Virus record (IMG/VR): IMGVR_UViG_2547132272_000023 | From: a virus | Taxonomy: Duplodnaviria; Heunggongvirae; Uroviricota; Caudoviricetes | Length of the DNA: 26,093 nucleotides | Strand: one strand, 5' to 3' | In this document: positions 1 to 25,804 of the stretch, one piece after another | Numbering within the stretch: position 1 is the stretch's first letter | How the letters are laid out: the number at the start of each line of letters is the position of its first letter | Position numbers and translations under genes: made by a program | The notes under the pieces: generated by a model | What the model was told of the DNA's origin: nothing | Seen by the model: only the letters and a program-made list of their open reading frames with translations | Databases searched by the model: none

Positions 1-1410
1 ATGTCTTTTCTTGATATAAAAAAAATGAGTAAAGAGAGGTTTAATGCTTTTGTTGATTGGACCAGAATGCCAAATACTGAACTTTTAGGTTATGAGTTTG
101 AGTGGTACTGTAGTCCGAGAGAGTTCCTGCTAGGGGCACTATTATTGGATCAAATCGATGAAGATTATAGCGGTATTGTTTTAGCAAGAGACTTAAGTGG
201 GAGATATAGATGTATTGACCTATTTACTAGTGTTTCAGAAATGAATTCTGCACGAGCAAAACTAAAGAAATTAATGCGGAAGCATACTAAATTAAACGTA
301 AAAGTATTTCCACAAGGTGATGAAACTTATAAAGCAATGGATTTATTCACACCTATAGTTACACTAGATAAACTTCATCATCATTTTTCATTATTTGGTA
401 AATACGCGAACTGGTCGCCTGCAACAGGGATAATCAAGGAAATGATGAATCATTTTGAGGATGTCGACGGGAATTTTATAGAGCAGTTTCAGACAACAGG
501 TTTTGATGCCCGGCTATGGGAGTTATATCTTTTCGCATATTTACGAGAGGAACACTTTTGGCTAGATAGGCAGTTTAATGCCCCTGATTATGTGGCACGT
601 AAGTATGGTAATACTATTTGCATTGAAGCTGTAACGGTTAATCCAACAGGGAATGATATTAATCAATCATCTGAAATGCTATCTGAACCTAAAAGTAAGG
701 AAGAATTGCTAGAGAAAATAGAGAATTATATGCCGATTAAATTTGGAAGTTCTCTCTATTCTAAACTGAAAAAGAAAACTCGATACTGGGATCTAGAACA
801 TGTTAAGGGGAATCCTTTAATTTTCGCAATTGCTGATTTTCATGAACCAAACTCTATGATTTGGTCCCATAGTGCACTTTGGCAGTATCTTTATGGTATT
901 CGCTATGAGCATGTTAAATCTGAAGATGGATGTTACAGTTTAGCAACTAAGAAAATTATATCGCATCAATTTGAGAAAAAGGAAATTCCTTCAGGCTTTT
1001 TCTTCTTGGATGAGTCTGAAAATATTTCGGCCGTCCTTAGTTCTAATAGTGGTACTATATCGAAGTTTAATCGGATGGGAAAACTGGCTGGTTTTGGAAG
1101 AAGTGACCTTAGATTATTTAGGAGTGGTTACTGCCATGATCATGACCCAGAGGCATTATATCCAGCAGCATTTAGTTTTGAAGTGAAAGAAGGCGATATT
1201 ACAGAAACATGGGCAGAAGGTTTAAATATGTATCATAATCCTAATGCTAAATATCCTGTAGATCCTGATTTATTTCCTTCAATAGCACATCATTTTCTTG
1301 AAAATGGAGAGGTTAAAAGTATAGTGCCTGACTTTCATCCGTATACATCTATTACCATAAATGTCTTAACTCAAAATAATAAAAAACAAAAAATCAGAGT
1401 AGATGAGTAA
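1..1410 (+). CDS. Hypothetical protein, AT-rich cargo gene at the P2 old/tin hotspot position; candidate accessory/defence function
   Basis: Uninterrupted 469-codon ORF, visibly AT-rich against the GC-rich phage backbone, convergent with portal gene Q. No Walker A, HNH, zinc-finger or transmembrane signature recognised by eye. ATG lies exactly at window position 1, so the true start may be upstream. Confidence 0.55.
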   Translation: MSFLDIKKMSKERFNAFVDWTRMPNTELLGYEFEWYCSPREFLLGALLLDQIDEDYSGIVLARDLSGRYRCIDLFTSVSEMNSARAKLKKLMRKHTKLNVKVFPQGDETYKAMDLFTPIVTLDKLHHHFSLFGKYANWSPATGIIKEMMNHFEDVDGNFIEQFQTTGFDARLWELYLFAYLREEHFWLDRQFNAPDYVARKYGNTICIEAVTVNPTGNDINQSSEMLSEPKSKEELLEKIENYMPIKFGSSLYSKLKKKTRYWDLEHVKGNPLIFAIADFHEPNSMIWSHSALWQYLYGIRYEHVKSEDGCYSLATKKIISHQFEKKEIPSGFFFLDESENISAVLSSNSGTISKFNRMGKLAGFGRSDLRLFRSGYCHDHDPEALYPAAFSFEVKEGDITETWAEGLNMYHNPNAKYPVDPDLFPSIAHHFLENGEVKSIVPDFHPYTSITINVLTQNNKKQKIRVDE

Positions 1411-1430
1411 TTAATTAGGTTTATTCTTGT

Positions 1431-1453
1431 TAACCACCTCATAGAGGTGGTTA
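1431..1453. terminator. Perfect 10-bp inverted repeat (TAACCACCTC-ATA-GAGGTGGTTA) between convergent genes; putative bidirectional terminator
   Basis: Read directly from sequence; lies in the 47-bp gap between the orphan ORF stop (1410) and the Q stop (1458), AT-rich flanks. Confidence 0.4.
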
Positions 1454-1457
1454 TTAA

Positions 1458-2495
1458 TTAGTCTAGGGATAGTTGATATTCTTTGAATGTAATAATATTA
1501 TTTTTTAGCCATAAATTTAATTCTTCGAAACGTTTTTGCAAAGGTATTAATTCATTACGAACAAATACCCGACTTGCCTTCTCCACATCCCCAAACCCCC
1601 CAACATTATTCGGCAAAATTCCCATCATCTGAGGCGGTACGCGGTGTGCAGCCATCATGTCGTCTCGGCTCACGTTCTTGATGTTCAGAAATTCATCTTT
1701 CGCTGCGACTTCTGACAACGGGATGATCTGAAGCCCGTCCTTTTTGCCGTTAGGCGAGTACATAAACAGGTTGCGGAAGTTGCCAGGGCCTTTGGCGCTT
1801 TTCATCGCGTTGCGGAGGTTGTTCACATCTTCCTGGTTCTGCGCGGCGTCGGTCATATACATGATGAAGCCTGCATGACTGCCGTTAATGTAATACTTGC
1901 GGCGGAACAGCGTGGCAGACTCGTTGAGCAGGGCGGATGGAATAGCAGAAAGATAACCGGGCAGGCCGTAGATCTCCTGGTTGATGTCCGGTTCCATCAG
2001 ATGAAAGATGCTGCCTTTCGTGAACTGATATGGCTGCGTGGTCATACCGTATTGCACAAACCAGTAGGTATCCAGGTCTAACCCGCGTCGGGTGTATTTT
2101 GCCAAGGCAGGTTCAAGGGCGATAACTTCACCGAAGCGGTTCGTGCGTTTCTCCAGGTAGGCGTTACCAAATACCAGATAGTCCTGCACAAAACGCGAAA
2201 AAGCCTGCTGGCTGAGCAGCGGGTGAGGGATGTAGGTGCTGGTCAGAATGTTGCACTTTACTGCAATCGGGGAACTATGATGAACGGCAGCGCGGAAGGT
2301 GCGCGCCAGTCCGTCAAAGCTGACGGGCGGCTCATACCAGCGGTCCATCTGTACGCATTCCACATAATCCAGCAGTTCTCGGCGGTCCAGAACAGGAACG
2401 GGATCGCCGAAGCTGAATGCTTCGGCTGTAGTTTGACTTTTAAGCTGGATCTGTTTCGTCGCCGCAGCGCGGTTCTTCTTACTCTTTCCCATCAA
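1458..2495 (-). CDS. Q: Phage portal protein (P2 gpQ-like)
   Basis: 345 aa (P2 Q about 344 aa as recalled); ATGA start/stop overlap with the downstream terminase gene; position adjacent to P as in P2. Confidence 0.85.
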   Translation of the reverse strand: MMGKSKKNRAAATKQIQLKSQTTAEAFSFGDPVPVLDRRELLDYVECVQMDRWYEPPVSFDGLARTFRAAVHHSSPIAVKCNILTSTYIPHPLLSQQAFSRFVQDYLVFGNAYLEKRTNRFGEVIALEPALAKYTRRGLDLDTYWFVQYGMTTQPYQFTKGSIFHLMEPDINQEIYGLPGYLSAIPSALLNESATLFRRKYYINGSHAGFIMYMTDAAQNQEDVNNLRNAMKSAKGPGNFRNLFMYSPNGKKDGLQIIPLSEVAAKDEFLNIKNVSRDDMMAAHRVPPQMMGILPNNVGGFGDVEKASRVFVRNELIPLQKRFEELNLWLKNNIITFKEYQLSLD

Positions 2496-4258
2496 AAAAT
2501 CTCCACAATATTGCTGGTATTGGCGGATTCGCCCTGCAGCGGTTCGTTAAACAGTGCGTGCATCGTTGCCCAGGCCAGATCGGCGTGGCTGGCTTCTTCG
2601 CTGCGGCTGGCTTCATAGGTCGGGCGGTTGCCACTGGCGGTGGTGGCTCGACGGATTGCCATAAAGGACTGCGCTATGTCGGTGTGTCCGGCGTCAAACT
2701 CCAGACGGCGGTGGCTGATAATGTCGTAGGCCTTGAGTACCAGGGCGTTTTTAACGTTGGGGTTGTAGACAAACTCCCGGACGGCAGGAAAAAACGCTTT
2801 CACGTTCTCGTAAACCCCGTGACCAACGCCGGTTGAGTCGATACCGATATAGGTCACGTTGTACTGTTCGGTCAGTTTTTTGATGGCGTCAGCCTGGGCG
2901 CGGAAGTCCATTCCGCGCCACTGGTGACGCTCAAGAATGCGGAACTTACCGCCCGGCACGGCTGGCGGCGCCACCACCACGCATCCGGCGCTGTCGCCGT
3001 TCTGCGTACCTTTCGCCGGGTCATATCCGATCCACACTTCGCGCCAGCCAAACGGGCGCAGGGCCAGTGCATGAAAGTCGGTCCAGACTTCCCAACTGTC
3101 CACCATGCACGCCTGCAGCTCGCTGAGTGGGAACACAGACGCGAGATCGTCCACGAACTCACACATCAGCAGGTTCTGGTATTCGTCCGGGCTGTACTCC
3201 ATGCGCAACTGGTCGAGGTCGAACAGGTTACAGCCGCCGCGCACCGCATCTTCCACAGTGACTATCTGGCGGTACTGCCCGTCTGCGCACAGCAGGCCGG
3301 GGGCCAGATTGCTGTGGGACAGGTCGATGTCCACCTTATCGGCTTTGTTGCGCCCTCGGTTGAACAGCGCACCGGACCAGAACGGATAAGCACTGTGTGT
3401 CAGGCTGGATGGCGTGGAAAAATAGGTTTGTCGCCATTTTTTGTGAATAGCCATACCGGAAGCCACTTTGCGCAGCTCCTGGAATTTCGGTATCCAGAAA
3501 TATTCATCCAGATACAGGTTGCCGTGGTAACTCTGGGCCGTGCGGGCATTGGTGCCGAGGAAGTACAGCGTGGCCCCGTTAGGAAGCACCATCGGATCGC
3601 CTTTCAGCTCCACCTCCACTTCTTTGGCGAAGTCGATGATGTACTGCTTAAAGACGTGGGCCTGAGCCTTGCTGGCGGAAAGGAAAATCTGGTTACGCCC
3701 GGTTAGCAGGGCGTCAATCAGGGCTTCACGGGCAAAATAGAAGGTCGCGCCGATCTGGCGTGACTTCAGCAGGTTGCGGATGCGGTTGGTTTTTCCGGCT
3801 TCCCACCAGTGGCGCTGGTAGTTGAACATGGAGGAATGGAAGATTTCTTCCAGCTTCTCAATCTGTTCATCGGTGAAAACGTTCTTTTCCGGCTGACGGC
3901 GCGGGCCTTTGTTGCGGTTGGCGACGTTAGGGTTTAAGTCGGCTTCGTTGCCGCCATTGTTAAACTTGCCGATCCGCGCATGGCGCTCCGACTGGCGCGC
4001 CAGCAGGTCAATCTCTTTGAAATCTTTCCCTTCTTTGTGCTCCTTCATAATGAGCTGGCAGTAGCGTGCGGCGGTGGTGAGCTGCATCTGATCCAGCGGC
4101 CCATAGTCACCCCACTTGTCGCGTTTTTTCCAGCTGTGAACGGTTGCAACTTTCTCGCCCAGCATTTCAGCAATGCGGGCTACGCGGTATCCCTGAAAGT
4201 ACAGCAGCATGGCCTGCCGACGGGGATCGAGATCTGCGGGTGTCAGTGTGGTGTTCAT
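2492..4258 (-). CDS. P: Terminase large (ATPase) subunit (P2 gpP-like)
   Basis: 588 aa (P2 P about 590 aa); divergent from the O-N-M capsid operon across a 142-bp intergenic region, the same arrangement as P2. Confidence 0.9.
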   Translation of the reverse strand: MNTTLTPADLDPRRQAMLLYFQGYRVARIAEMLGEKVATVHSWKKRDKWGDYGPLDQMQLTTAARYCQLIMKEHKEGKDFKEIDLLARQSERHARIGKFNNGGNEADLNPNVANRNKGPRRQPEKNVFTDEQIEKLEEIFHSSMFNYQRHWWEAGKTNRIRNLLKSRQIGATFYFAREALIDALLTGRNQIFLSASKAQAHVFKQYIIDFAKEVEVELKGDPMVLPNGATLYFLGTNARTAQSYHGNLYLDEYFWIPKFQELRKVASGMAIHKKWRQTYFSTPSSLTHSAYPFWSGALFNRGRNKADKVDIDLSHSNLAPGLLCADGQYRQIVTVEDAVRGGCNLFDLDQLRMEYSPDEYQNLLMCEFVDDLASVFPLSELQACMVDSWEVWTDFHALALRPFGWREVWIGYDPAKGTQNGDSAGCVVVAPPAVPGGKFRILERHQWRGMDFRAQADAIKKLTEQYNVTYIGIDSTGVGHGVYENVKAFFPAVREFVYNPNVKNALVLKAYDIISHRRLEFDAGHTDIAQSFMAIRRATTASGNRPTYEASRSEEASHADLAWATMHALFNEPLQGESANTSNIVEIF

Positions 4259-4304
4259 GGCACAAACCTACAGCCTTGAATGAAGGCTTTCCCCGCCTGC
4301 GGTT

Positions 4305-4322
4305 TGTGTGGTTGTCGGTACA
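4305..4322. promoter_or_regulatory. TGT-N12-ACA dyad in the P/O divergent intergenic region; putative Ogr-dependent late promoter element (PO and/or PP)
   Basis: Sequence TGTgtggttgtcggtACA about 80 bp upstream of the O start codon; matches the P2 late-promoter activator-binding dyad as recalled. Confidence 0.4.
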
Positions 4323-4400
4323 AATACCGCGCATTGTTTCACTGCCCCCATCACCGCAACCATAAGGCTCCAGTAAGTTTTTTCTAACGGAGCACGGCTC

Positions 4401-5234
4401 ATGACAGTGAAAGCAAAGCGTTTTCGCATCGGGGTGGAAGGTGCCACCACCGACGGACGCGAAATCCAGCGTGAATGGCTGGAACAGATGGCAGCCAGCT
4501 ACAACCCGGCGGTGTATACCGCGCTGATTAACCTTGAGCACATCAAGTCTTATCTGCCGGACAGCACCTTTAACCGCTACGGCAAGGTGACGGCGCTGTT
4601 TGCTGAAGAAATCACGGAAGGTCCGCTGGCAGGCAAGATGGCGCTGTATGCCGACGTTGAGCCAACGGAGTCCCTGGTGGAACTGGTGAAAAAAGGCCAG
4701 AAATTATTCACCTCTATGGAAGTCAGCCCGAAGTTCGCTGATACGGGCAAAGCCTATCTGGTCGGCCTGGCGGCCACTGATGACCCTGCCAGTCTGGGTA
4801 CGGAAATGCTGACATTCAGCGCCAGTGCAGCCCATAACCCGCTGGCAAACCGCAAGCAGAATCCTGCCAATCTCTTTACCGCTGCAGAGGAAACGGTGAT
4901 CGAACTGGAAGAAATCCAGGACGACAAACCGTCCCTGTTTGCCCGCGTCACGGCGCTGTTTACCAAAAAAGAGCAGTCCGATGACGCCCGGTTCTCTGAT
5001 GTGCATAAGGCCGTGGAGCTGGTCGCCACTGAGCAGCAGAACCTGAGCGCACGCACCGAAAAATCCCTGTCTGAGCAGGAAGAACGCCTGTCTGAGCTGG
5101 AGACTGCCCTGCAGGCACAGCAAACCGCCTTTAACGAACTGGTGGACAAGCTGAGTCATGAAGACAGTCGCCAGGACTACCGCCAGCGTGCAACAGGCGG
5201 TAACGCCCCCGCTGACACTCTGACCAATTGCTGA
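4401..5234 (+). CDS. O: Capsid scaffolding protein (P2 gpO-like)
   Basis: 277 aa (P2 O about 284 aa), first gene of the O-N-M-L operon; acidic, coiled-coil-like C-terminal half. Confidence 0.85.
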   Translation: MTVKAKRFRIGVEGATTDGREIQREWLEQMAASYNPAVYTALINLEHIKSYLPDSTFNRYGKVTALFAEEITEGPLAGKMALYADVEPTESLVELVKKGQKLFTSMEVSPKFADTGKAYLVGLAATDDPASLGTEMLTFSASAAHNPLANRKQNPANLFTAAEETVIELEEIQDDKPSLFARVTALFTKKEQSDDARFSDVHKAVELVATEQQNLSARTEKSLSEQEERLSELETALQAQQTAFNELVDKLSHEDSRQDYRQRATGGNAPADTLTNC

Positions 5235-5250
5235 TGGAGCACAAAACCCG

Positions 5251-6309
5251 ATGAAGAAGAATACCCGCTTTGCTTTTAACGCTTACCTGCAGCAGCTGGC
5301 GCGTCTGAACGGTGTGGCAGTTGAAGAACTGTCCAGCAAGTTCACCGTGGAGCCGTCTGTGCAGCAGACGCTGGAAGACCAGATCCAGCAGTCCGCCGCT
5401 TTCCTGACGCTGATTAACGTCACGCCAGTGACTGAGCAGTCCGGTCAGCTGCTGGGGCTGGGAGTTGGCAGCACCATTGCCGGAACCACTGACACCACCG
5501 CGAAAGAGCGTGAACCTGTCGATCCGACGCTGATGGTCGATGTGGAATATAAATGCGAGCAGACCAACTTTGACACGGTGCTGACCTACGCGAAGCTGGA
5601 CCTGTGGGCGAAGTTTCAGGATTTCCAGGTGCGCATCCGTGACGCCATCGTGAAACGTCAGGCTCTGGACCGCATCATGATCGGCTTTAACGGCGTGAAG
5701 CGTGCGAAAACCTCCAACCGTAGCGAAAACCCGCTGCTGCAGGATGTGAACAAAGGCTGGCTGCAGAAAATCCGTGAAGATGCACCGGATCACGTCATGG
5801 GCAGCACCACCACGGGCGGTGAAACCACACCGGGTGCGGTGAAAGTCGGGAAAGGTGGCGAATATGCCAACCTGGACGCCGTGGTGATGGATGCCGTCAA
5901 TGAGCTTATCGATGTGGTCTACCAGGACGATGACGATCTGGTGGTGATTTGCGGTCGTGAACTGCTGTCTGACAAGTATTTCCCGCTGGTCAACAAAGAG
6001 CAGGAAAACAGTGAAAAACTGGCTGCCGATATGATCATCAGTCAGAAACGCATGGGTGGCCTGCAGGCCGTGCGTGCGCCGTTCTTCCCGCCGAATGCAC
6101 TGCTGATCACCCGTCTGGATAACCTGTCCATCTACTGGCAGGAAGACACCCGCCGCCGCTCAGTTATCGACAACCCGAAACGTGACCGGATTGAAAACTT
6201 TGAATCCGTTAACGAAGCCTATGTGGTTGAGGACTACCGCTGCGCCGCACTGGTGGAAAACATCCAGATTGGCGACTTCAGCGCCGCAGCAGCAGAAACC
6301 GGAGCGTAA
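5251..6309 (+). CDS. N: Major capsid protein (P2 gpN-like)
   Basis: 352 aa, immediately downstream of the scaffold gene; position and length as P2 N. Confidence 0.85.
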   Translation: MKKNTRFAFNAYLQQLARLNGVAVEELSSKFTVEPSVQQTLEDQIQQSAAFLTLINVTPVTEQSGQLLGLGVGSTIAGTTDTTAKEREPVDPTLMVDVEYKCEQTNFDTVLTYAKLDLWAKFQDFQVRIRDAIVKRQALDRIMIGFNGVKRAKTSNRSENPLLQDVNKGWLQKIREDAPDHVMGSTTTGGETTPGAVKVGKGGEYANLDAVVMDAVNELIDVVYQDDDDLVVICGRELLSDKYFPLVNKEQENSEKLAADMIISQKRMGGLQAVRAPFFPPNALLITRLDNLSIYWQEDTRRRSVIDNPKRDRIENFESVNEAYVVEDYRCAALVENIQIGDFSAAAAETGA

Positions 6310-8439: not shown

Positions 8440-8817
8440 ATGAAAAAGAAATTAATCAGCGGACTGTTTCTGATGTTATGGATGGCGCTGTTAATCGCAG
8501 CAATGGTGTATCCGCAGGGGATTTTTCCGGTACTGGCAGCGTCCGGCGTTTGGGTAGCCTGTTTGCTGACATGGGCGGTAATTCCGGTAGCACTGGCTGC
8601 GTTAATTAAGAATGGCCCGCTCTGGCAGGAGTTAAGGGCATCTTTGCTGAAGACAATTACCCGAAAAGAAAACGTATTTACCAGTTGGGTGATGCGATTG
8701 CTGATTGTTGTAAGTCTCGCCTGGACGGGGTGGGCTATTACCCTGGTCTTTTATCTACTGACCGTTATTGCCTTCTGGATCACCCGTAATCAGATGGCGC
8801 AACAGGTAGCAGCATGA
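8440..8817 (+). CDS. lysA: Lysis timing membrane protein (P2 LysA-like)
   Basis: Start at ATG 8440 preceded by GGGAG (8426-8430), one nt after the K stop; multi-pass hydrophobic protein. Confidence 0.6.
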   Translation: MKKKLISGLFLMLWMALLIAAMVYPQGIFPVLAASGVWVACLLTWAVIPVALAALIKNGPLWQELRASLLKTITRKENVFTSWVMRLLIVVSLAWTGWAITLVFYLLTVIAFWITRNQMAQQVAA

Positions 8818-9242
8818 ACCGGTTGCTGCTGGTTGTGCTGACGTTATTACTGGCGGCGCTGGGCTGGCAGACGTGGCGGCTGGCTGATGCCAGCCAGACC
8901 ATCAGCACGCAGGCAGACGAGCTGCAGAGCAAAAGCCAGGCACTGGCAAAGAGCAATAGCCAGCTTATCAGCCTGTCCATTCTGACTGAAACCAATAACC
9001 GGGAGCAGGCGCGGCTCTATGCCGAAGCAGAACAGACCAGCACGCTGCTGAGACAACGACAACACCGGATCGAGGAACTGAAACGTGAGAACGAGGATTT
9101 ACGCCGCTGGGCTGATACTCCTTTGCCTGCTGACATTATCCGGCTGCGGAAACGTCCGGCACTCACCGGAGGTATGGCTTACCGTCAGTGGTTGTCCGCG
9201 AGTGACGCCGTGTCGGCTGGATCAGGCAACGCCGCGCACTAA
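8814..9242 (+). CDS. lysB: Inner-membrane spanin, Rz-like (P2 LysB-like)
   Basis: 142 aa; N-terminal transmembrane helix then a Q/E/R-rich coiled-coil region; ATGA overlap with lysA. Confidence 0.7.
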   Translation: MNRLLLVVLTLLLAALGWQTWRLADASQTISTQADELQSKSQALAKSNSQLISLSILTETNNREQARLYAEAEQTSTLLRQRQHRIEELKRENEDLRRWADTPLPADIIRLRKRPALTGGMAYRQWLSASDAVSAGSGNAAH

Positions 9243-14724: not shown

Positions 14725-14809
14725 CTGAGAATTAAATGGTTAGTATCATCCTCCCCCACACTGCCTATATGGTATGAATACGAGGGGGAGGCTGTTTGTT
14801 GTCTGTTTC

Positions 14810-14818
14810 TGTGATAAT
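14810..14818 (+). promoter_or_regulatory. Putative extended -10 element (TGtGATAAT) for the acyltransferase cargo gene
   Basis: TG motif one base upstream of a GATAAT hexamer, about 35 bp upstream of ATG 14852; no good -35 hexamer. Confidence 0.3.
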
Positions 14819-14851
14819 ATTAGATTCCCGTTTTTTAATAAAAAAATCAAT

Positions 14852-15862
14852 ATGAAAGAGAATAAAATACGTTCTGCCGATGGCGTGAGAGGTTTCGCTT
14901 TGATGATTGTTGTGGTGATGCATTCTACGGGACTATTCTTTCCCTCACTTCATGATCATCTCGGAGGTACGGGGCAGCCCGGTGTTTGGTTGTTTTTTGT
15001 TCTTAGCGCCTTTTTGTTGACACATAAATTTATTAATTCTGGTTTTTCGTTTTTGAATGTGTTGAGTTATCTTTTAGGGCGAACAATAAGGATATTACCG
15101 ATTTTTTATATTGCAGTATTAATTTATTACCTTATGGGATTTTATGATTTAGAGAAAATGAAATCGATAATTTCATTTGATAGTACTTACATCCATCTCT
15201 GGACTATTCCGATAGAATTCAAGTTTTACTTTTTGTTGCCGATTGTGGTTTATCTCGCATCTAGTATCCAGAAAGTTGCAGGTAGAAAATATTCTTTGTT
15301 GTTTTTGATATTGTTAACCTTAGCGTTCGCTTTTATATACCCTTATACGGATGACGAAATCAACGGTAGGCTACCGTATTACATTCCTGTTTTTATGTAT
15401 GGAATTATAATTGCGTTTATGTATAACTATTTTCAAATTAAAATATCATCTCTCGTTAGTGATGGGGTGTCAATTGCGATTATATTAATATTTATAATGT
15501 TGACCCCTCCTTTTCAGGGGGCTAATGGTTGGCTGGGTAATAAATTTGTGGTATTGGGGCCATTTATTGCTCTCTTTGTATATCTGCAAGTAAATTCCAG
15601 TGGGTATGTAAGCGCGGTTTTATCTTCAAAAATCATGGCGGATTTGGGGAAATATAGTTTTTCAATTTATTTGTTTCATATAATGATAATTTTTATTGTT
15701 TATCCTAAATTTTTGGATAATGTTACTGCATACTTAGTTACTATAGCTTTATGTATTGGCGGTGGGGCTATTGCCTATCATTGCATTGAATCTCCCTTGG
15801 AATCGTTCAGACATAAGCTTATGAAAAGAATAACGCAGGCTTATCAGAATCAAAATATTTAA
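14852..15862 (+). CDS. Acyltransferase-3 family integral membrane protein; putative O-antigen/surface-polysaccharide acetyltransferase (lysogenic conversion cargo at the Z/fun position)
   Basis: N-terminus KIRSADGVRGFALMIVVVMH fits the conserved R...G.RG.A......H start of acyltransferase-3 proteins; about ten hydrophobic helices; strongly AT-rich; located between G and FI. Start placed at ATG 14852 rather than the track start 14774. Confidence 0.7.
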   Translation: MKENKIRSADGVRGFALMIVVVMHSTGLFFPSLHDHLGGTGQPGVWLFFVLSAFLLTHKFINSGFSFLNVLSYLLGRTIRILPIFYIAVLIYYLMGFYDLEKMKSIISFDSTYIHLWTIPIEFKFYFLLPIVVYLASSIQKVAGRKYSLLFLILLTLAFAFIYPYTDDEINGRLPYYIPVFMYGIIIAFMYNYFQIKISSLVSDGVSIAIILIFIMLTPPFQGANGWLGNKFVVLGPFIALFVYLQVNSSGYVSAVLSSKIMADLGKYSFSIYLFHIMIIFIVYPKFLDNVTAYLVTIALCIGGGAIAYHCIESPLESFRHKLMKRITQAYQNQNI

Positions 15863-23237: not shown

Positions 23238-23317
23238 CGCTGCCGCCATTTTGTCGCCATCGTTAAAAAACAGTGCTTCTAACATCATGATTTTAAACAG
23301 CTTAAATTTCAGGCAAC

Positions 23318-23360
23318 AAAAAACCCATCAACCTTGAACCGAAATGGCGGGGTTGATGGG
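23318..23360 (-). terminator. Rho-independent terminator of ybjL (hairpin plus U-tract on the minus strand)
   Basis: CCCATCAACC (23324-23333) pairs with GGTTGATGGG (23351-23360); on the minus strand the hairpin is followed by TTTTTTGT. The 17-nt loop is rather large. Confidence 0.4.
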
Positions 23361-23472
23361 CTCCACAAAATGGGGACATCAAAGAAAAGCAGTGGCACTA
23401 ATTAAGACTGATGCCCCGAGGAAAAGTTCTGCGGTTGTACAAAAAAATTTCATTTTTGGGGCAACTTCAGTT

Positions 23473-25158
23473 TTATCCGAGTCCTGGCCATACCATTACG
23501 ATGATTGTCCCTGCCAGCGTCAGCAGTACGTTAGCTATTGCATAAGTGCCCGCATAACCTAAGGCCGGGATGTTGCTGCGCGCAGTGTCGCTGATGATCT
23601 CCATTGCCGGAGCACAAGTACGTGCGCCCATCATTGCACCGAATAACAGCGCGCGGTTCATGCGCAGCACATAAGCGCCAAACAGGAAGCAAATAACAAC
23701 GGGCACCAGGCTGACAATTAACCCGGCAATCAACATCTGACCGCCAATCGCACCCAGGCCGTTATTGATGCCACTACCGGCGCTTAAACCCACGCCCGCC
23801 ATAAATACCATCAAACCGAACTCTTTCACCATGCTTAACGCGCCCTGGGGAATATAGCCGAAGGTCGGGTGGTTCGCTCGCATAAAGCCCAGCATAATAC
23901 CAGCGAATAACAATCCGGCGGCGTTACCCATGCCGAAGCTGAATGTGCTGAACTGGAAGGTGATCATCCCGATCATCAGACCGATGACAAAGAACGCGCA
24001 GAATGCCAGTAGATCGGTAACCTGGCTGTGAATCGAGATAAAGCCGATGCGATCGGCGATGGTTTTCACGCGACGGGCATCGCCGCTCACCTGCAATACA
24101 TCGCCTTTATTAAGCACCACGTTATCGTCGATCGGCATTTCGATCTGGCTGCGGATGACGCGGTTAAGGAAACAACCGTGATCGGTCAGCTTCAGTTGTG
24201 CCAGGCGTTTACCGACAGCGTTATGGTTTTTGACGACCACCTCTTCAGTGACGATACGCATGTCGAGAAGATCTCGATCAAAAACTTCTTTACCGTTACG
24301 GAAGCTGGGATCGAGTCGGGCGTGGGCGTCGGGATATCCTACCAACGCTATTTCATCGCCCATCTGTAGCACGGCGTCACCATCCGGATTTGCCAGAATC
24401 CCGTTACGACGAATACGTTCAATGTAGCAACCGGTTTGTCGATAAATACCCAGTTCGCGCAAGTTTTTGCCATCGGCCCAGGCGACCAGTTCCGGCCCGA
24501 CGCGGTAGGCGCGAATGACCGGCAGATAGACTTTACGGCTGGCGTCGGTATCCAGACCCCGTTCACGAGCGATTTGTTGGGCGCTGGTTTGTAAGTCCTG
24601 ATGCTGCAACTTAGGCAAGTAACGCGCACCGACAATCAAACTCACCAGGCCAATCAAATAGGTTAATGCATACCCGAGGCTTAAATTATCCAGTGCCGCA
24701 GAGAGCTGCCCGCTTTCTATTCCTGAGTGGCGTAAGGTATCGCCCGCACCAACCAAAACCGGTGTTGATGTCATTGAACCAGCCAACATACCGGCCGTCA
24801 GGCCGATGTCCCAGCCAAACAACTTACCCAGTCCTAAGGCGATCAGCAGTGCACTACCGACCATTACCAGGGCTAACATTAGGTAATTTTTCCCATCGCG
24901 GAAAAAAATGGAAAAAAAGTTGGGTCCGGCTTCGACCCCGACGCAGAAAATAAACAGCATAAAGCCAAGATTAAGCGCGTCGGTGTTAATACTGAAATGT
25001 TGTTGACCTAATAACAGTGATACGACTAAAACGCCAATGGAATTACCCAGTTGGATTGAACCAAGTCGTAATTTTCCGAGACATAGTCCAAGCGCGAGGA
25101 CCACGAATAATAACAGAATGTAATTCCCATTTAACAATTCGGCGACGTTTATATTCAC
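23473..25158 (-). CDS. ybjL: Putative transporter of the AspT/YidE/YbjL family (host chromosomal gene)
   Basis: 561 aa, two hydrophobic transporter halves separated by a soluble central region; N-terminus [29 protein letters not shown] recognised as E. coli YbjL from memory; lies next to ybjM and grxA as in E. coli K-12. Confidence 0.8.
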
Positions 25159-25426: not shown

Positions 25427-25804
25427 GTGAAACATAAACAACATTGGGCGGGGGCAATTTGCTGTTTTGTCCTCTTTATTGTGGTGTGCCTTTTTCTGGC
25501 GACACATATGAAGGGAGCTTTTCGGGCTGCCGGGCACCCTGAAATCGGCTTACTGTTTTTCATTCTTCCTGGGGCTGTAGCCAGCTTTTTTTCGCGGCGT
25601 AGAGAAGTCCTTAAACCACTGTTTGGCGCAATGCTGGCAGCACCGTGTTCTATGTTAATTATGCGTCTGTTTTTTTCACCATCACGCTCATTCTGGCAGG
25701 AGCTGGCGTGGTTGTTGAGTGCCGTCTTCTGGTGTGCGCTGGGCGCATTATGTTTTTTGTTTATCAGTAGCTTGTTCAGGCCGCAACACAGAAAAAATCA
25801 ATAA
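25427..25804 (+). CDS. ybjM: Inner membrane protein YbjM (host)
   Basis: 125-aa hydrophobic protein between ybjL and grxA, the K-12 arrangement. Confidence 0.65.
   Translation: MKHKQHWAGAICCFVLFIVVCLFLATHMKGAFRAAGHPEIGLLFFILPGAVASFFSRRREVLKPLFGAMLAAPCSMLIMRLFFSPSRSFWQELAWLLSAVFWCALGALCFLFISSLFRPQHRKNQ

Follow-up and report, generated by a model that had tools for sequence, protein, structure and literature searches.

What is the AT-rich gene that stands at the edge of this stretch of P2-like prophage DNA, next to and facing the portal gene, and what does it do for the phage or its host? The window, by which we mean the entire 26,093-nucleotide stretch of DNA that was analyzed (IMG/VR record IMGVR_UViG_2547132272_000023, Caudoviricetes), opens with a 469-aa open reading frame (ORF). 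A preliminary description, made from the letters of the sequence, took it for an orphan gene at the old/tin position of P2, with a candidate undescribed accessory or anti-phage function.

The ORF and its unusual base composition are as described there. GC content is 0.29 to 0.38 over positions 1 to 1500 (about 0.33 to 0.37 for the ORF) and 0.52 to 0.62 from about position 1650 on, and the gene converges with the next ORF, the portal gene Q, which is annotated as 'phage portal protein' in identical prophages and is followed by the gene for the terminase ATPase (Table 1). The ATG occupies the first position of the window, and an extension of the gene beyond it had been considered possible. However, in the prophage of Escherichia coli UPEC132, which is 99.9% identical, an in-frame TGA lies four codons 5' of the ATG and none of the intervening codons can serve as a start, so window position 1 is the true start of the gene. 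The UPEC132 prophage has a Shine-Dalgarno sequence (GAGGT) before this ATG, PGAP calls the same start and the same 469-aa product there, and the match to the PD-T7-1 profile (see below) begins at residue 7 of the protein. A scan of the upstream spacer for the sigma-70 consensus yielded no convincing promoter, which must lie outside the window. Downstream, a perfect hairpin (TAACCACCTC-ata-GAGGTGGTTA) folds at -18.9 kcal/mol (z of -2.98 relative to shuffled sequences), at a place equivalent to that of the P2 terminator tQ, and is likely to be the terminator for both converging genes. Comparison with homologues at 72% to 75% identity gives a dN of 0.15 to 0.19 with saturated synonymous sites, a pattern indicating that the ORF encodes a protein under purifying selection; the dN/dS ratio itself is not computable because dS is saturated.

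Table 1 Features of the window that bear on the 469-aa gene and on the rest of the prophage
Feature	Position	Strand	Basis or remark
Complete CDS, PD-T7-1-family anti-phage protein	1..1410	+	ORF from ATG to TAA, 469 aa plus stop
N-terminal alpha/beta domain (aa 1 to about 100)	1..300	+	Model: four-stranded sheet plus long helix
Divergent PD-(D/E)xK (restriction-endonuclease-like) core (aa about 125 to 300)	373..900	+	Model and fold matches
Candidate catalytic residues	520..633	+	E174 at 520-522; P195-D196 at 583-588; E209-A210-V211 at 625-633
Beta-rich C-terminal region (aa about 300 to 457)	898..1371	+	Model
10-bp perfect hairpin	1431..1453		Between the two converging stop codons
Last ~25 codons of Q, containing the right cassette junction	1458..1535	-	AT-rich, varies between prophages by cargo
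Portal gene Q	1458..2495	-	Pfam Phage_portal
Terminase ATPase gene P	2492..4258	-	
362-aa ORF	14774..15862	+	Pfam Acyl_transf_3, E 9e-27
RybB sRNA	23315..23393	-	Rfam, 105 bits
Asp-Al_Ex/TrkA_C permease	23473..25158	-	
YbjM protein	25427..25804	+	

The protein is far from being an orphan. It matches the PADLOC model for PD-T7-1 over its full length (PDLC04073; E 3.5e-196, 650.3 bits; aa 7 to 457 against positions 2 to 449 of the 452-position profile), and among the candidates scored its homologues with E ≤1e-5 form 3643 clusters at 90% identity, with members from Escherichia, Erwinia, Klebsiella, Yersinia, Burkholderia, Pseudomonas, Massilia, and others. PHROG 8571, a family of unknown function, matches aa 108 to 465. 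The PADLOC model for PD-T7-5 (PDLC04110; E 3e-56), a single-gene system labeled 'Nuclease' that was selected on T7 (PMC9519451), also matches the protein at aa 113 to 436; this identity was rejected because the match is shorter and weaker than that to PD-T7-1 (189 vs 650 bits). Scans against Pfam and NCBIfam returned no family and no domain, which agrees with the earlier observation that the protein has no Walker A, HNH, or zinc-finger motif, and the PDB sequences, searched with a profile, yielded nothing beyond a chance match at E 0.64. An identity as an OLD-family nuclease or as Tin was dismissed for lack of any Pfam, NCBIfam, or other PADLOC match. Judged by these sequence comparisons, membership in the PD-T7-1 family is close to certain. 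The gene is a single-gene, complete member of a family that is already known and is recognized by current defense-annotation models. The exact protein (WP_000008839) had also been listed, as 'hypothetical', among the occupants of the P2 hotspot in a table of Rousset et al. 2022, so it was not undescribed. The clone pFR103 of that study, from E. coli S88, holds a different gene, though S88 carries the allele.

PD-T7-1 is one of 21 systems that emerged from a functional selection (Vassallo et al. 2022; PMC9519451). The founding gene, taken from strain ECOR46 and labeled 'Nuclease', was cloned in a low-copy plasmid under its native promoter, and it protected against T7 less strongly than against the T-even phages (PMC9519451). 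A second member, from strain NILS69, protects K-12 against a Teseptimavirus and makes T7 plaques smaller; measured anti-phage phenotypes in the family are those of the ECOR46 and NILS69 proteins only. The literature searched reports no substrate, trigger, or mode of action for PD-T7-1 and contains no biochemical data on its cleavage or mechanism.

The sequence of the founder was recovered through the genome-specific parts of the published cloning primers (Table S8, PMC9519451). These primers were absent from the 32 loci examined before IMG/VR, and a search of E. coli genomes by DNA similarity did not find the validated gene, as the alleles are too divergent and the only copies retrieved were at least 99.6% identical to the window gene. 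A common 449-aa E. coli allele, present in the lambdoid phage mEp460_ev081, was considered as the founder and rejected, being only 60% identical to it. Three IMG/VR contigs contain both primers at a spacing of 1697 nt. This agrees with the 1698 nt given for the cloned region, so the 449-aa ORF of these contigs, with 302 nt upstream of it in the cloned region, is the validated PD-T7-1. The founder (RCQ85672.1) is colinear with the window protein and 31% identical to it over 453 columns (E 1.5e-71), and it scores lower against the PADLOC PD-T7-1 model (510 bits) than the window protein does (650 bits); the family membership of the latter is thus secure. The anti-phage phenotype of this particular allele is, by extension from its family, most likely. 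The early view of the gene as foreign-looking, probably anti-phage cargo stands, while the word 'undescribed' does not.

Because a known, experimentally founded family is involved, and one that defense models already recognize, there is little new in the gene as such. In the UPEC132 prophage, the order is replication endonuclease gene A, a small gene, a DinI-like gene, a 321-bp spacer, the 469-aa gene, portal gene Q, and terminase gene P, and eight identical IMG/VR loci have the same layout as the window. When the A-to-Q interval is compared across related prophages, the same slot holds other cargo in three sister prophages, namely a PDC-S59 candidate, a GmrSD/NsnA-like enzyme (E. coli W), or Septu PtuAB, as expected of a variable hotspot. 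Alignment of the loci reveals two variable slots that flank a conserved block of about 150 bp (UPEC132 locus 8758-8908, 93 to 243 bp before window position 1). This block contains GGCGTGGCGGGGATACGAG, which resembles the annotated cosL of P2, GGCGAGGCGGGGAAAGCAC. Conservation of the block extends to 88 P2-like phage records. What has been called 'hotspot 1' of P2 is really two slots around a conserved cos-like block. In P2, tin and old lie in the A-side slot and are transcribed leftward, and the cos-to-Q interval is only 186 bp long and holds no gene; here, the A-side slot is empty and the rightward 469-aa gene fills the Q-side slot. The assignment to the old/tin position is therefore correct for the variable A-cos-Q hotspot as a whole and incorrect for the slot, since the gene is on the Q side of cos and tin and old are on the A side.

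The ends of the cassette can be located as well. It begins outside the window, with 92 bp of AT-rich DNA before the ATG, and encloses a single ORF. Partner genes had been suspected just beyond the edge of the window, but only the conserved DinI-like gene and the conserved cos block are found upstream. A restriction-modification system was rejected for the same locus, as the cassette has only the one gene and no methyltransferase; the DNA adenine methylase of the prophage belongs to the conserved backbone upstream of gene A, and a sister prophage whose cargo is another one has it too. At the right end, the identity of Q to its counterparts in three other prophages falls from >90% to 55% to 65% and then to 8% to 37% in the last two 60-nt blocks, where GC content is 18% to 40%. 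Homology detected by blastn resumes at about window positions 1476 to 1515. The cassette ends at about 1476 to 1535, and portal lengths range from 341 to 346 aa. Because the last ~25 codons differ according to the cargo and the rest of the gene is >90% identical, the cassette junction lies inside Q, and the C-terminus of the portal protein travels with the cargo.

Relatives of the gene are found at other sites as well. Homologues at 72% to 73% and at 48% identity adjoin diverged P2-type portals, and other relatives in IMG/VR lie elsewhere. A 449-aa relative in the P2-like Yersinia phage VB-YPM-4 (locus 2989-4338; 33% identical) occupies the second P2 hotspot, between the sheath and fiber genes. 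The 449-aa allele of phage mEp460_ev081 (locus 3989-5338; about 33% identical) lies in the accessory region between the replication genes and the lambdoid Q, and that of a Morganella phage (locus 2989-4338; about 33% identical) lies by umuDC near the integrase. These differing cargo sites indicate that the PD-T7-1 family moves between phage hotspots.

The distribution of the gene bears on whether it serves defense or the prophage itself. It is present in 25 of 5426 complete E. coli genomes, once per genome, always on the chromosome, and at 99.6% to 99.9% identity, compared with 1265 of the 5426 for the Q-P backbone (window positions 1700 to 4258). IS1 splits two of the 25 copies, those of the broiler-chicken isolates 33-6 and 58-3, which indicates that the gene is dispensable and sometimes lost. 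Its occurrence in only 25 of about 1265 backbone genomes, along with its alternation with bona fide defense systems, argues that it plays no part in the phage life cycle. These same observations, together with the measured anti-phage activity of two relatives, make it very improbable that the gene is a non-defense accessory, such as a recombination or junction-resolving nuclease of the prophage's own or a conversion gene unrelated to phages. Such a role is hinted at by a weak local similarity of the protein to archaeal Hjc resolvases and by the name 'glycosaminoglycan attachment protein' on the database records of some relatives. That name was rejected as an identity for the window protein, as it has no Pfam or NCBIfam family behind it.

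To examine the anatomy of the protein, we built an AlphaFold2 model from an alignment with 67 homologues (pLDDT 89.4, pTM 0.90), which divides it into three regions (Table 1). The N-terminal domain lies outside the matches to PD-T7-5 and PHROG 8571 and has five residues that are invariant in 70 sequences (E32, D53, D55, D64, and R70). It could be imagined as a sensor or DNA-binding domain, which from the model is a guess. A WGR/AP2-like DNA-binding identity for it was rejected, as there was no Pfam match at E up to 1 and Foldseek matched the WGR domain of PARP2 at a probability of ≤0.25. The beta-rich C-terminal region, with the invariant residues K355, R358, E402, W404, and N413-P414 in the same 70 sequences, had no convincing structural relative. 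With the full model as the Foldseek query, nothing in the PDB matched at E ≤0.001.

The middle region is the most informative. A faint PD...E-x-(not K) pattern had been pointed out here and judged too weak to call a nuclease; it corresponds to P195-D196...E209-A210-V211, lies at columns that are invariant in 70 homologues down to 31% to 36% identity, and, according to the AlphaFold model and the fold matches, marks a nuclease-like core. The elements of this core (helix 168-183, strands 197-201 and 204-213, helix 233-256, and strand 273-279) follow the order of the PD-(D/E)xK fold, with E174, D196, and E209 on the canonical helix-1, strand-2, and strand-3 positions. Besides E174, P195-D196, and E209-A210, the residues R171, D154, D156, K255, and D279 are invariant over the same range of sequences. 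The fold matches of the core are mainly PD-(D/E)xK nucleases, at low scores: the CdiA-CT toxins of EC869 (6.9), YPIII (6.5), and B. pseudomallei (6.0), XisH-like 2okf (6.4), N.BspD6I (5.8), Upx (5.7), AF1548 (5.6), LlaBIII (5.3), HamA and SfsA (both 5.1), BstEII (5.0), Can2 and Avs4 (4.9), FokI (4.8), and Hjc (4.7).

The lysine of the (D/E)xK motif, two residues after the strand-3 acid, is absent from every family member examined; its place is taken by valine in the window protein (V211), threonine in a Klebsiella phage allele, and alanine in the validated protein. As far as the alignments tell, the missing lysine is a genuine peculiarity of the PD-T7-1 family. It also raises the question of whether the fold is catalytic at all. 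A protein without activity might bind a phage DNA structure, such as ends or branched intermediates of replication and recombination, or a phage protein, and so block replication or packaging without cleavage, and the substitutions at the lysine position and the low scores of the fold matches would agree with this. We nevertheless consider it improbable. None of the three acids, which occupy the canonical metal-binding positions, varies among 70 sequences whose identity goes down to 31%; this constancy would be hard to explain without catalysis, and the acids support the predicted activity. BamHI (ExE) and BglII (ExQ) are active enzymes without the lysine, and in the PD-T7-1 proteins the positive charge could be supplied by R171, K255, or K355. 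A nuclease-based mechanism, as the model suggests it, has in our estimate somewhat better than an even chance of being correct.

Taken as a whole, the gene is probably a single-gene PD-T7-1 defense system, carried as exchangeable cos-to-Q cargo, whose product acts as a solo PD-(D/E)xK nuclease that protects the lysogen. The gene would be expressed from the P2-like prophage in the lysogen, with its own AT-rich upstream DNA and the likely hairpin terminator. Its product would act alone as a metal-dependent nuclease, with E174, D196, and E209 as the predicted catalytic acids, and would attack nucleic acid when other phages superinfect the lysogen; for the tested relatives these are T7-like and T-even phages. 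The regions on either side of the core, N-terminal and beta-rich C-terminal, would presumably recognize the target or the trigger. The outcome would be protection of the host together with its resident prophage.

The principal rival to this reading is an abortive-infection toxin, a latent nuclease that a phage cue would switch on and that would then degrade host and phage DNA, or tRNA, indiscriminately, so that the infected cell is killed or arrested instead of being cleared of phage; binding without cleavage and a role outside defense are less likely. The core resembles the CdiA-CT toxins in structure, and there is no partner that could distinguish self from non-self, both of which are consistent with such a toxin. 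However, an antitoxin-like neighbor is absent from the locus, and according to Vassallo et al., direct immunity is the mode of 7 of the 11 DNA-binding or nuclease-like systems, a figure that applies to the group. Overall, we regard the toxin as possible, if doubtful.

A further suggestion, which is tentative and on the whole unlikely, is that the PD-T7-1 clade at the cos-to-Q position of P2-like phages is not a conventional DNase, and works instead either through an unusual active site or by a trigger-gated mechanism whose target range differs from that of the ECOR46 protein. This possibility comes from the identity of only 31%, the His and Asp residues that are invariant within the clade (such as H281 and C-H-D-H-D-P), the missing lysine, and the acidic cluster E32/D53/D55/D64. 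If true, the clade would be a tractable entry to a single-protein defense mechanism.

Other features of the prophage and its surroundings are worth recording. Between the tail-fiber and tail sheath genes, at the second P2 cargo hotspot (the Z/fun position), there is a 362-aa ORF with a match to Pfam Acyl_transf_3 and none in PADLOC. From its sequence, it is probably an LPS/O-antigen acyltransferase with a role in lysogenic conversion or in exclusion at the level of the receptor. Outside the window, the UPEC132 prophage has a DUF4041 protein between the integrase and the CI repressor (locus 85-1761, minus strand) that matches the PADLOC model PD-Lambda-1 (E 7.5e-120). With this match joining the PD-T7-1 gene, a single P2-like prophage carries at least two Vassallo-type defense genes along with the acyltransferase. 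The last phage genes of the window are followed by the RybB sRNA, an Asp-Al_Ex/TrkA_C permease, and a YbjM protein, so the right end of the prophage abuts the host genes rybB-ybjL-ybjM. The window contains no tRNA.

As an annotation, this result is routine, since a standard defense-system scan would label the gene PD-T7-1 and its site is the textbook cargo hotspot of P2. Its main value is as a correction, in that the gene is not an orphan, is not truncated, and has no partners. PD-T7-1 is also widespread (>3600 clusters at 90% identity). The anatomy suggested by the model, with three regions, a putative E-D-E site without the lysine, and an N-terminal domain that is missing from PD-T7-5, points to concrete mutants.

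Several known systems share features with the window protein. Like old and tin of P2, which are non-essential lysogenic-conversion genes that exclude other phages from a cos-proximal position in the A-to-Q interval, the gene is cargo of this interval. There is no sequence relationship, however, and Old is annotated in the P2 record as an 'AAA family ATPase ... exonuclease'; old and tin lie leftward on the A side of cos, and the window gene lies rightward on the Q side. With the CdiA-CT toxins of EC869 and YPIII, XisH-like 2okf, and archaeal Hjc, the protein shares the order of the core elements, an acid on helix 1, a PD before strand 2, and an E on strand 3. The nuclease domains of Gao_Upx and Hachiman HamA are also among the fold matches, without homology beyond the minimal fold and with other accessory domains, and HamA works with a partner, HamB (according to the title of the structure entry), whereas the window protein is solitary. 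PD-T7-5 of E. coli UMB0934 has the core and the C-terminal module in common with it (aa 113 to 436) and lacks its N-terminal domain of about 110 aa. The closest comparison is with PD-T7-1 of ECOR46. The founder has 449 aa, compared with 469 in the window protein, which has 6 extra N-terminal and 12 extra C-terminal residues; residues that are invariant in the window clade, such as H281 and H381 (C-H-D-H-D-P), are not conserved in the clade of the founder, and no P2 portal is near the founder gene in its viral contigs. Nonetheless, the two proteins are colinear over their full length, with the same three-part architecture and a PD...E-A-(V/T/A) motif in both (PD...V-E-A-A in the founder and P195-D196...E209-A210-V211 here), and each is encoded by a single gene with its own upstream region on a mobile element.
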